Assembly (NCBI RefSeq): GCF_003018255.1
Contig: NZ_CP027440.1
Reading direction: 5' to 3' (one strand)
Length of the DNA: 64,000 bases
Origin: Escherichia coli
GTDB lineage: Bacteria; Pseudomonadota; Gammaproteobacteria; Enterobacterales; Enterobacteriaceae
Part shown: one piece after another, positions 5,010-52,049 of the stretch
Layout of the letters: every line of letters begins with the position of its first letter
Position numbering within the stretch: the stretch's first letter is position 1
Notes under the pieces: model-generated
Database searches by the model: none
What the model saw: the letters and a program-made list of their open reading frames with translations, nothing else
What the model was told of the DNA's origin: nothing
Made by a program: the position numbers and the translations under genes

Positions 5010-5327
5010 TCACAGGACGTCCGAAGCCTGGTTGAGCAGCCAGATGATGACCACCAGAAGAATGCTGCCGACGCCTGCCATCGAGCCCAGATCTTTCCAC
5101 TGCTTGCGTCCGCTCTGGATCTCCGAATAGGTAGCAATACAGTTGTTCGCCACTACCAGAAAACCGACGGCACAGATGGCCAGCGCCAGCAGCACCACGA
5201 TGTCAAAACCGTAGTTTTGCAGCGTCTCCATAATGCCCTTGCCCTGACCGCGTGACGGATCTTCCATCGTCGGCAGGTCGGCGAGGGCGTTAAATGTGGC
5301 GAACAGCAGTAACAGAAACCAGCGCAT
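5010..5327 (-). CDS. ICE T4SS integral membrane protein (PFL_4702-like)
   Basis: 105 aa ORF with signal-like N-terminus and hydrophobic core. Confidence 0.5.
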   Translation of the reverse strand: MRWFLLLLFATFNALADLPTMEDPSRGQGKGIMETLQNYGFDIVVLLALAICAVGFLVVANNCIATYSEIQSGRKQWKDLGSMAGVGSILLVVIIWLLNQASDVL

Positions 5328-5336
5328 GATGCCTCC

Positions 5337-5570
5337 TCAGCTCAGTACCAGCCAGAAGCTGACTAGCACCAGTAACAGTGAATGGGCCGCCACCGCGCCA
5401 AAGCTCTGCCAGCTCAGACGCTGGCGGCAGACGCCCTGCCAGGCGACCATTAGCGTCCAGGCACACCACAGCAGCAGGACGCTGGTAAACAGGCCGAGCA
5501 CCAGCAGGCTGACGGTCTCCGGTTTGCTCAGGCTGGCGGCCTGAAAGGCGGCGAGTTGCGAGTCAGTCAT
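5337..5570 (-). CDS. ICE small membrane protein
   Basis: 77 aa ORF, two predicted TM helices, tightly packed in the operon. Confidence 0.45.
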   Translation of the reverse strand: MTDSQLAAFQAASLSKPETVSLLVLGLFTSVLLLWCAWTLMVAWQGVCRQRLSWQSFGAVAAHSLLLVLVSFWLVLS

Positions 5571-5871
5571 CGGGATTCTCCTGCTGGTAGTTGGCGCTCA
5601 GGGGCTGAATAGCACGCGGCTGTGCTCTAGCCGGGGCAAGATAGCGGCGAATGCCTTGTTCAACGACAGAGATGTCCTGCTGCGCCTGTAAGTAGTCGAA
5701 GAAGTAGCGCGCCTGCGGATCGTTGCTGGCGCTGGTCCGGGCGTGCTCCAGCGAGGTTTTAACGCCGTCGAGTTGCTTCAGCGCGAGGGCGAGCTGGGTG
5801 GATTCCGGGGAGGCGATTACCAGTACCGGGAAAGGTATTATTAACAGTAATAGTGCTGTCTGGGACTGCAT
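5563..5871 (-). CDS. RAQPRD-family integrative conjugative element protein
   Basis: 102 aa ORF with signal peptide and the family-defining motif (here RAQPRAI). Confidence 0.6.
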   Translation of the reverse strand: MQSQTALLLLIIPFPVLVIASPESTQLALALKQLDGVKTSLEHARTSASNDPQARYFFDYLQAQQDISVVEQGIRRYLAPARAQPRAIQPLSANYQQENPDD

Positions 5872-48678: not shown

Positions 48679-49082
48679 TCCCTCATTTCTGGTGCAAAGT
48701 TGAACCGCTTTGCACTATGTATGTTCCCTGAATAGTTAATTATGTTCTGCAGAATATATTATGCGTAAATTAATCATTACGTACGATATATTGTTTTGGA
48801 ATAATTATATATCAGTTTAACGCTGAGAAATTATTCGGAATAATCAGAATATGTTAACGTATTTCCGTTATGTTTAATGACTTTTGTCAAATGATACCTT
48901 TTTAAATAAAAAGTCAGTGGATATTCTTTTCTGTACAGTGTTTTATCTTTGGCGGATCTTATAAATCCCTTATGAAAGTGCCAGGGACGCAATGAGCATA
49001 AAGGAATGATTATGGAATATGAGCATCAACCCAGTGGTGTCCGGCAGCCAGGGCAGGATACAGATGCCACTAAACGTCAGGA

Positions 49083-49475
49083 GTGCGCAAAATGATGCGC
49101 CAATCAGTTCAGACGGTATTACCTGAAAGTACAGGACACAATACGTTATCGCTGCGTGATTCCGTATGCCGGGATCTCTTTCAACTTTTTAGTTCTCCCC
49201 ATTCACCGCTACCAATATTACTTGTTTCAGGCATGCCTGAGTGGCAAGGGCATAATCAGAGCGACAAGCTTCTCCAGAGTTGGTATTGCCGCCAGTTACG
49301 TTCCGCGCTTTTATTTCATGAGCCACGTATTGCGGCATTGCAGGTCAATCTGAAAGAAGCCTATTGCCACGAGTTGGCCATTAGTCTGGAGATGATGCTG
49401 TACCACGATGATGAGCCGCTAACGTTTGACCTGGTCTGGCAGAAGGGGAACTGGCATCGCACGATGCCGCAGTAA
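49083..49475 (+). CDS. iraD: Anti-adaptor protein IraD (RpoS stabiliser)
   Basis: 130 aa matching IraD/YjiD; preceded by an AT-rich regulatory region. Confidence 0.8.
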
Positions 49476-49522
49476 ATGACGGGAAACGCGATACGCGCAA
49501 GACGTATCGCGTTAGGTCACAA

Positions 49523-49864
49523 TTAGTGGGAGGCTCTGATTGCTGCTTTCAAGGCCGGAAGCCGGGATGGACTGGCACTGAGCTTATCAATCCCCATGGT
49601 GAGCAGTCGTGCTGTTTGCTGGATATCTCCAGCCATTTCGCCGCACATACTGACCGGAATTTCATTATTACGTCCGGCCTGACACACCATAGCAATAGCG
49701 TTAATCACCGCGTCATTACAATAATCGACCAGTTTCGCGACGGTGCTATTTCCTCTGTCTGCCGCCATAATATATTGCGTCATATCGTTGGTGCCGATGG
49801 AAAAGAAATCGACTTCACTGGCTAATTTGTCTGCAATCATGACTGCGGCAGGAACCTCAATCAT
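49523..49864 (-). pseudogene. C-terminal fragment of a PEP-utilising enzyme (PTS enzyme I / PtsI-like)
   Basis: 113 aa ORF with MIEVPAAVMIADKLASEVDFFSIGTNDMTQY...MCGEMAGD, the conserved PEP-utilisers C-terminal region; no N-terminal domains upstream (iraD is adjacent). Confidence 0.6.
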
Positions 49865-49900
49865 AATTCCCAGCGCCGGAAGATTTTCTGCAGAAAACTT

Positions 49901-50812
49901 TCAACCAGGTTCAATCTCCAGCTCGCGCAGTTCACGCCAGAAGCGTTCGGCAATTGGATTCATGCGGGTATTCATCCGGTATGCGTAGGCCTGAATCGGG
50001 ATCACCAGTTCTTCCCGATTCAGTACAACGAGCTGCCCGCTGCGAATTTCTTGTTGGATAGCGTATTCCGGCAGCCAGGCAATCCCACAGCCGTCGAGGG
50101 CAACCTGCTTTAATAGCTCGCTCATCGAAGAGACAAAAAAGGTGCTGAAACTCAACTCACTGTGGCGCGTCAGGGTGCGATTAATCAATCGCCCCATGTA
50201 GGAGTTGCGGCTGTAATTCAGTAACGGAAAGTGTGGCTGCGCGAGGTTAAACAGTGCTTCTCCGTGTTCGTCACTGGCGCAGACGGGGAATAATTGAGAT
50301 TCAAATAAGCGAATGTGGTCAAACGGCGCTTCCAGCAAATCTTCGTCGTGAAAGGAAAAAATACAGTCACTTTGCCCTTCGCGCAGTTTATCGACCGCTT
50401 CATCGACATCAATGGCTTCAATTGCCCAGGTAAAGAGCGGCGGCATCTGGCTGATAATGGACGGTAACAGACCGAGGGAAAGAGAGTGTGCAGCGGCTAT
50501 CTTGATTTTACGTTGCGCGTAATCGCTGCCGCCACGCAGCTCTGCCAGGTTGCTTTCTAACTGTTGCAACAGATGGCGGATCTGCGAATGGAAGATTTTC
50601 CCTTGTTCCGAGAGTTGCAGCGGCGTCACCTGGCGGTTAAACAATTCAACGCCAATCGCCTGTTCCAGTGCACGGATGCGGCGGCTGAATGCCGGTTGCG
50701 AGACGTTGCGACTGACTGCCGCCTGGGAAAAATTGCGACATTTTTCCAGGGTCAGAAAATCATAAAGCCATTTGGTTTCAATGTTATGCAAAACCGCACC
50801 ACAGTCATCCAT
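49901..50812 (-). CDS. hypT: LysR-family hypochlorite-responsive regulator HypT (YjiE)
   Basis: ORF 49901..50890 trimmed to ATG at 50812 (MDDCGAVLHNIETKWLYDFLTLEKCRNFSQAA...), 303 aa. Confidence 0.85.
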   Translation of the reverse strand: MDDCGAVLHNIETKWLYDFLTLEKCRNFSQAAVSRNVSQPAFSRRIRALEQAIGVELFNRQVTPLQLSEQGKIFHSQIRHLLQQLESNLAELRGGSDYAQRKIKIAAAHSLSLGLLPSIISQMPPLFTWAIEAIDVDEAVDKLREGQSDCIFSFHDEDLLEAPFDHIRLFESQLFPVCASDEHGEALFNLAQPHFPLLNYSRNSYMGRLINRTLTRHSELSFSTFFVSSMSELLKQVALDGCGIAWLPEYAIQQEIRSGQLVVLNREELVIPIQAYAYRMNTRMNPIAERFWRELRELEIEPG

Positions 50813-50876
50813 TACGTTATACTCTGTCAGCCGCCCTTGCGGGCATTCTACGTCCATTCGGGCGGCTGACAACCGG

Positions 50877-52049
50877 TTATGCCGTTTCAAACGTTCCTTT
50901 CACGCAGGCTTTGCCGTCTTTGACCATCAGTTTGCCGCGAGCGTATACCTGCTCAATGCGCAATTCAGGCGTCATGACCAGTAAGTCTGCGTCATTGCCT
51001 GGCAGAATTTCGCCTTTCCCGGTCAGGTTAAGGAAACCGGCTACGCTACTGGTGAGCGGGCGCAGGGCATCGCTAAGGCTGAAGCTATAGTCTTTGACCA
51101 ACATTTGCACGGTTTCCAGCAATGTTTCAAAACCTGCAACACCGATATGGGTTAAATTTCCTTCGTCATCAAAGAACGGCTGGCTACCGTTGCCGTCGGA
51201 GCTGAGGGTGACGCGTGCCAGCGGAATACCCGCCTGAACGGCGCGGGCAATACCTTCGGCAGGGGCGACCGGTTCGTCAATGCTACTGGTGATGTCGATG
51301 GTGCCGCCTTTGCGCGCGAACTCCAGCGCCTGCTCAAACAACGGAACGTTGCGGTTAACGTGGGTCGGCAGCAGCTTGCTGATCGGCACATCGCAGTTTT
51401 CCAGCAGGTCATAGACAGGCTGTAACGCCTTTTTGCTGTCGCCCATGTGGAACACGGTGACGCCAGGTTTACCGCCAAGCAAACCGCCAACGCGGGATTC
51501 CGCCGCCATATTAGCCAGGTGATAAACGTCAGGTGCGGCAGAACGGTGATCAGAGATGGCGCATTTCACACCAATCACGCGATCGATAATCGCCACGTCT
51601 TTTTCCACGGAACCTGTAATGGTGCGGGAAGGGACATGATAAGCGCCGGTCAGCATCCAGGCGCTGATGCCTTCTTCATTGAGCGCACGGGTCTTGGCGA
51701 GCAGGGATTCCGGGTGGCGAGAGATAGAGTCGGTACCCAGCAGACCAACCACTGACGTGACGCCCGCTTCCGTCAGACGACTTAACGCCACTTCCGGCGT
51801 GCGTGTCGTGGGACCTGCTTCGCCGCCACCACCAATCAAATGGACGTGTTGATCAATAAAACCTGGGCAGAGGATCTGCCCGCTGAGATCGACAACCGTG
51901 CAGTCTGGTACAATGTCAGAAGGGATGTTGCTGGCAACGGCAATAATTTTGCCGTTAGCGATGAGGACATCGCAAATTCCCCGATCTTCCGGCGCATACA
52001 AATGCGCTCCCTGCAGCAGGGTAAAACCGGCTGCGGAATAATCAATCAT
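50877..52049 (-). CDS. iadA: Isoaspartyl dipeptidase IadA
   Basis: 390 aa amidohydrolase (HxH metal motif QHVHLIGGGGEAG). Confidence 0.9.
   Translation of the reverse strand: MIDYSAAGFTLLQGAHLYAPEDRGICDVLIANGKIIAVASNIPSDIVPDCTVVDLSGQILCPGFIDQHVHLIGGGGEAGPTTRTPEVALSRLTEAGVTSVVGLLGTDSISRHPESLLAKTRALNEEGISAWMLTGAYHVPSRTITGSVEKDVAIIDRVIGVKCAISDHRSAAPDVYHLANMAAESRVGGLLGGKPGVTVFHMGDSKKALQPVYDLLENCDVPISKLLPTHVNRNVPLFEQALEFARKGGTIDITSSIDEPVAPAEGIARAVQAGIPLARVTLSSDGNGSQPFFDDEGNLTHIGVAGFETLLETVQMLVKDYSFSLSDALRPLTSSVAGFLNLTGKGEILPGNDADLLVMTPELRIEQVYARGKLMVKDGKACVKGTFETA

Follow-up and report, generated by a model that had tools for sequence, protein, structure and literature searches.

Introduction

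GimA, the ibeA island of Escherichia coli, has been described as a 20.3-kb segment with a GC content of 46.2%, located between yjiD and yjiE and organized in four operons, ptnIPKC, cglDTEC, gcxKRCI and ibeRAT, the gene pptE being the same as ptnI (PMC2878320). The paper reports neither direct repeats nor an adjoining tRNA gene for the island, and no mobility or insertion elements within 10 kb. The same text (Homeier et al. 2010, PLoS One 5:e10877; PMC2878320) distinguishes three states of the locus, GimA+, GimA- and a '342 bp remnant of pptE', the last being an open reading frame (ORF) that retains the pptE stop codon and uses an internal Met as start. The remnant is reported in CFT073, 536 and F11, is nearly confined to phylogroup B2 and ST117, and is associated with uropathogenic E. 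coli (UPEC); a factor-binding site was predicted upstream (data not shown), a 'change of function' was suggested, and one scenario derived the K-12-type GimA- locus from the remnant by a further deletion (PMC2878320). Overexpression of the full-length pptE leads to filamentation, and the 0.34-kb remnant is also mentioned in that study (PMC6206680).

Here we analyze an orphan enzyme I-like fragment in a 64,000-nucleotide stretch of E. coli DNA (hereafter the window) and compare it with these systems. Direct DNA comparison and the literature identify it as the remnant described in 2010, and the finding as such is known; we describe its junction, its distribution among complete genomes and its decay in one lineage.

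Results

The fragment holds the last third of an enzyme I PEP-binding domain

The ORF lies on the minus strand at 49523..49864 and encodes 113 residues between an ATG start and a TAA stop, including the motifs SIGTNDMTQY and MCGEMAGD. The features of the locus are as follows.

49092..49475, plus strand: iraD (yjiD), GimA-linked allele, 127 aa (annotation and comparison)
49476..49522, no strand assigned: preserved left end of the island, the 47-bp iraD-pptE intergenic spacer (colinear with GimA+ strains)
49523..49864, minus strand: 113-aa ORF, the 342-bp 'GimA remnant', equal to pptE/ptnI codons 681-793, with the internal Met681 as start and the original stop kept (profile matches, alignment, primer matches)
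49865..49893, minus strand: extra pptE-derived sequence 5' of the ATG, about 10 codons (...AENLPALGI), in frame and identical to intact alleles (junction alignment)
49889..49895, no strand assigned: deletion junction, TGCAG(AA), 5-7 bp of microhomology (three-way comparison of the window with the left and right sides of GimA+ loci)
49896..49912, minus strand: 17-nt patch covering the hypT stop codon and last three codons (alignment to the normal hypT 3' end)
49901..50812, minus strand: hypT (yjiE), full length, 303 aa, with its TGA stop at 49901-49903 (annotation and comparison)

The first-pass annotation had described the ORF as carrying only the C-terminal PEP-utilizers region of enzyme I (EI), and the profile searches bear this out: residues 1-111 match positions 180-290 of the 293 positions of Pfam PEP-utilizers_C (PF02896; E 9.3e-40), while PF05524 and PF00391 are absent from the ORF. 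The match to NCBIfam PTS_I_fam (TIGR01417) covers positions 428-538 of 565 and scores 130.9 bits for a cutoff of 341.7, which identifies the ORF as a fragment and not a full enzyme I. The similarity to enzyme I is far above chance, as testified also by an alignment on residues 425-539 of E. coli EI, for which structures have been solved (PDB 2HWG and others), with an E value of 1e-26.

The fragment spans approximately EI residues 429-541, about the last third of the PEP-binding domain. Missing from it are the phospho-histidine, HPr and EIIA domains and the initial two-thirds of the barrel, where the other PEP-binding residues are located; the full set of enzyme I parts (an N-terminal HPr-binding domain, a mobile phospho-histidine domain and the whole PEP-binding barrel) is not present. 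The equivalents of EI Glu431, Asn454/Asp455, Arg465 and Cys502 fall inside the fragment in this alignment; their roles are presumably those assigned in the EI literature and from PDB 2HWG. Arg296, Arg332 and Lys340, which sit N-terminal to residue 425 of EI, lie outside it. Since the phosphotransfer domains and most of the PEP-binding barrel are missing, the fragment, on its domain content, cannot be expected to act as a phosphotransferase.

iraD, on the plus strand, is convergent with the fragment and lies on its 3' side, whereas hypT adjoins its 5' side, its stop codon lying 37 nt from the remnant ATG. The proposal that iraD takes up the space upstream of the ORF therefore holds for the neighborhood and fails for the orientation, as the side of the missing N terminus faces hypT. 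The mechanically predicted hypT ORF (49901-50890) has 329 codons from a TTG, the annotated start being the ATG at 50812; the 26 additional codons lie over the 3' end of iadA. Strain JNE23-011 matches the window with 100% identity over 1.4 kb, and PGAP, the NCBI annotation pipeline, annotates 49523..49894 there as a pseudogene, 'putative PEP-binding protein, missing N-terminus'. A hairpin with a 12-bp stem at about 49483-49511 in the iraD-pptE spacer (fold -24.8/-26.0 kcal/mol, z -4.5/-4.6) is probably a bidirectional terminator for the convergent iraD and remnant. A scan of the whole 64-kb window (1-64000) against Rfam gave no RNA family at the gathering threshold.

On the other side of iraD, the window belongs to a GimA-linked haplotype (48679-49475) that is without yjiC, ytiD and idlP, which K-12 and ATCC 25922 carry between uxuR and iraD, and that includes a spacer of 35.8% GC. 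The iraD region of this haplotype shows about 78% DNA identity to the K-12 type, and the C terminus of iraD is different. The idlP leader peptide is not annotated by PGAP in JNE23-011, the strain identical to the window.

The parent gene opens the GimA island

Megablast searches with the fragment against 5426 complete E. coli genomes detected it in 511, as a single copy in each and always on the chromosome. It forms part of an intact gene followed by the island in 246 genomes and is contiguous with iraD and hypT, in the remnant arrangement, in 265, which all have one and the same junction; the genomes without the fragment have the K-12 arrangement. The intact homologue is a 2382-bp gene annotated ptsP, placed directly after iraD and encoding 793 residues, of which residues 681-793 are identical to the window ORF at 111 of 113 positions. 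Strains intact at exactly the same site, with which the first-pass annotation had proposed a comparison, thus exist, and its reading of the ORF as what is left of a deleted locus is borne out. The fragment is what remains of the 3' end of pptE/ptnI, with which GimA begins.

The intact protein is composed of EIIA-man, PTS-HPr, PEP-utilisers_N, PEP-utilizers (mobile His domain) and PEP-utilizers_C domains, and the adjoining genes encode Dak2 (dhaL) and Dak1 (dhaK) proteins. This domain set and these neighbors point to a DhaM-like phosphoryl-donor subunit of dihydroxyacetone kinase, that is, EIIA-Man-like and HPr-like domains fused to an EI-like one and encoded beside dhaL and dhaK; nothing of this composition is left in the window. 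By its predicted domains, the parent is a protein with a complete enzyme I module and is not the general PtsI.

In strain Z1323PEC0014, ptsP is followed by dhaL, dhaK, glycerol dehydrogenase, an MFS transporter, an FAD oxidoreductase, a BCCT transporter, glycerate kinase, 2-hydroxy-3-oxopropionate reductase, hyi, gcl, dhaR, ibeA, nhaC and then hypT. Measured from the iraD stop codon to the junction point, the island of this strain is 20,302 bp long with 46.1% GC, in agreement with the values of 20.3 kb and 46.2% given for GimA in PMC2878320. The deleted locus was accordingly PTS-related in its first operon, as had been suggested, but not in the rest of the island.

Both pptE probe primers of the 2010 paper (PMC2878320) map to the termini of the window ORF. 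The forward one, atgattgaggttcctgccgc, fits the end with the ATG without any mismatch, and the reverse one, ttagtgggaggttctgattgc, fits the end with the stop codon but for a single base.

A single junction with a rewritten hypT end

The window follows the intact locus as far as 49893, some 10 codons past the remnant ATG, and is colinear with it again from 49913. With Z1323PEC0014 as reference, it jumps from intact-locus position 15894 to about 35779, which corresponds to a deleted stretch of 19,884 bp; what survives of the island is its left 418 bp, made up of the 47-bp spacer and 371 bp of coding sequence. The pentanucleotide TGCAG (49889-49893) is common to pptE and to the ibeT-hypT spacer of GimA+ strains, and the next two bases, AA, are common to the spacer only. 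No integrase is annotated in the island, and the hallmarks of classical att-mediated excision (direct repeats, a tRNA gene, an integrase) are lacking. As there are neither flanking repeats nor an integrase, site-specific excision is unlikely, and the junction pattern points to a microhomology-mediated illegitimate deletion instead.

Between the junction and the resumption of colinearity lies the 17-nt patch (49896-49912), which is just as long as the normal hypT 3' end and keeps the position of the stop codon while differing at 8 of its 17 positions. As a result HypT ends in EPG (...EIEPG) instead of VLS (...EIVLS). The patch is found in exactly 265 genomes, the number that carry the remnant, and in no others, and every match listed lies over remnant and hypT. 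A search for its source in the intact locus and island, the window and the K-12-type locus at up to 4 mismatches returned only the patch itself, and an exact 21-mer scan of 100,044 species representatives gave no match. When a GGT/GGC polymorphism was allowed, the 21-mer scan gave one match, in Escherichia sp. E1V33, which was rejected as a source because it carries the same remnant. Two sources of the patch are conceivable, an ancestral allele that had diverged and error-prone repair where the ends were joined.

The hypT TGA stop stands in the reading frame of the remnant (49864), and no further stop codon separates the two. This arrangement, together with the EPG terminus of all 265 remnant genomes and no others, would be compatible with the relevant effect of the deletion bearing on hypT and not on the fragment, through the VLS-to-EPG change, the new 3' UTR and an occasional read-through yielding a HypT-PptE' fusion. 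We consider this very unlikely: the frames would coincide by chance in one case out of three, no recoding signal was identified at the hypT stop, and the exchanged residues sit at the extreme C terminus of a LysR-type regulator.

None of the 265 remnant genomes has the 2011 bp of pptE that precede the junction: the pptE tail is present in 511 genomes and the body in only 246. This bears on the possibility, raised by the first-pass annotation, that the fragment belongs to a longer gene interrupted by frameshifts. Upstream of the ORF the sequence is colinear with hypT to within 3 codons of the hypT end, and because hypT is full length and a stop codon precedes the ORF, no frameshift correction can lengthen it. 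Nor did we find support for its companion, repeated independent deletions at a hotspot, which we rejected as the sampled remnants have one junction and one 17-nt patch that is unique to them. Taken together, the likelihood of a longer frameshifted gene or of recurrent deletion is practically nil, and both are already effectively refuted. Strain LR-28 (NZ_AP027512.1) contains, at 4035366-4036009, 644 bp (32%) of the deleted 2011-bp pptE stretch at 100% identity; this partial match may correspond to an independent, different truncation of GimA.

The remnant haplotype probably has a single origin

All eight E. coli remnant loci sampled, the most divergent included, have the same junction and patch, bar one synonymous GGT/GGC polymorphism, while polymorphisms internal to the remnant (D22E, K54E, C59R, I91T and others) are also found in different GimA+ alleles. 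This combination of an identical junction and patch with polymorphisms common to GimA+ alleles is consistent with one deletion and subsequent homologous recombination in the flanking sequence.

When one genome per species was scanned for the pattern, Escherichia sp. E1V33 turned out to have this junction too, with flanking genes only about 88-90% identical to those of the window, so the remnant haplotype is either old or has moved across lineage boundaries. At the E1V33 locus (5290-5680), similarity to the window forms a mosaic, with iraD and the remnant about 96% identical but much of uxuR and hypT only 87-90%, which suggests a recombinational exchange of the segment.

The K-12-type GimA- loci, including ATCC 25922, have the original VLS end of hypT, a different iraD allele that overlaps hypT, and in addition yjiC, ytiD and idlP. 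Given their VLS end and different iraD allele, they cannot have been derived from the remnant by a second deletion.

The remnant is probably under relaxed constraint

In the conserved GTNDL motif, the window allele carries a private Leu-to-Met substitution. Among private changes, remnant alleles show 3 that are nonsynonymous and 0 that are synonymous, and intact alleles 0 and 2, respectively, a small sample for which the Fisher test gives p about 0.1. In E1V33 the reading frame has decayed outright, with a +1 frameshift and a TAT-to-TAG stop, and the dN/dS between the window and E1V33 is 0.52, as compared with 0.10 among intact alleles (last 257 codons). The private changes, the broken E1V33 frame and the raised dN/dS are evidence for a probable relaxation of constraint on the remnant. 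The ORF remains open in all eight sampled E. coli remnant alleles, which weighs little since few mutations have accumulated.

A consensus scan detected no sigma-70-like promoter between the hypT stop and the remnant ATG, and transcription would be expected to read through from hypT; the only nearby minus-strand sigma-70-like site (49797-49769) is inside the ORF. Shine-Dalgarno pairing ahead of the ATG is weak to moderate (-4.2 kcal/mol).

These data also allow one to weigh whether the remnant gives rise to a small protein that has taken on a new role, for instance in uropathogenicity or by interfering with the dimerization of enzyme I-family proteins through the retained barrel segment. Start and stop codons are in place, the frame is intact in the sampled E. 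coli alleles, a modest Shine-Dalgarno-like GGGA precedes the ATG, co-transcription with hypT is expected in the absence of an intervening terminator, and PMC2878320 reports enrichment of the remnant in UPEC strains of phylogroup B2. A third of a TIM barrel is, however, unlikely to fold alone, the private substitutions affect conserved motifs (GTNDL to GTNDM; M43R), the frame is broken in E1V33 and dN/dS is raised, and the UPEC association is also explicable by clonal descent, as in ST73 and ST127. A new role for the 113-residue product is thus very unlikely, and the remnant is most likely an inert, decaying pseudogene carried on the hypT 3' UTR. It is likewise very improbable that the reported UPEC association owes anything to a change in HypT, which regulates the response to hypochlorite stress, or to a product of the remnant, whether the 113-aa peptide or a fusion made by read-through.

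Discussion

The locus is very probably explained by a non-functional 3' fragment of pptE/ptnI left by one deletion of about 19.9 kb in GimA, which has since spread. In GimA+ E. coli, pptE would encode the phosphoryl-donor subunit of a PEP-dependent dihydroxyacetone kinase (pptE-dhaL-dhaK) and stands at the opening of the 20.3-kb island. A single illegitimate event would then have joined the TGCAG at pptE codon ~670 to the TGCAG(AA) just past the hypT stop, with loss of the island but for 418 bp, on the same haplotype that bears the rewritten hypT terminus. The junction haplotype would have spread by descent and by homologous recombination, the ORF being open only through the chance presence of an internal Met codon downstream of the junction. 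Probably the hypT mRNA carries the remnant along passively as its 3' tail, and the sequence is subject to neutral drift. What the fragment is, where it lies, its junction, its distribution and its decay in one lineage are observed here; how the deletion came about and the absence of function are inferred.

The ORF should be annotated not as a PEP-binding protein but as a pseudogene, the pptE-derived GimA remnant. Its presence marks the window as belonging to an E. coli lineage that once had the ibeA island, and the locus is useful as a three-state typing marker (GimA+, remnant, GimA-). What is seen here is genome decay of an ordinary kind in an E. coli island that has been well studied, with little import beyond annotation; the details of the junction give one small evolutionary inference, namely that K-12-type GimA- loci cannot descend from the remnant, contrary to one scenario raised in 2010.

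The closest described system is the GimA remnant of Homeier et al. (2010). The locus between yjiD/iraD and yjiE/hypT, the 342-bp ORF, the pptE stop and the internal Met start are the same, as is the three-state polymorphism (GimA+, remnant, GimA-); there is no essential difference, the L-to-M change in GTNDL being private to the window allele. The passages of PMC2878320 found by term searches contain no description of the breakpoint, of the altered hypT end or of the extra 29 nt of pptE homology.

Compared with its parent, PptE/PtnI of GimA1 (ptnIPKC operon; e.g. WP_000225787.1, 793 aa, annotated 'ptsP, phosphoenolpyruvate--protein phosphotransferase'), the fragment matches residues 681-793 and is without residues 1-670, that is, the EIIA-Man, HPr, EI N-terminal and phospho-histidine domains and about two-thirds of the PEP-binding barrel. 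With E. coli enzyme I (PtsI, PDB 2HWG) it shares the C-terminal TIM-barrel family of PEP-utilizing enzymes, but it does not derive from the general PtsI. The dhaKLM system of K-12 has DhaK-like and DhaL-like partners, as does the parent operon of the fragment. In K-12 DhaM the EI-like domain is truncated and the protein relies on the general PTS, whereas the GimA protein, which has a complete EI module with its PEP-binding domain, could in principle take phosphate straight from PEP.
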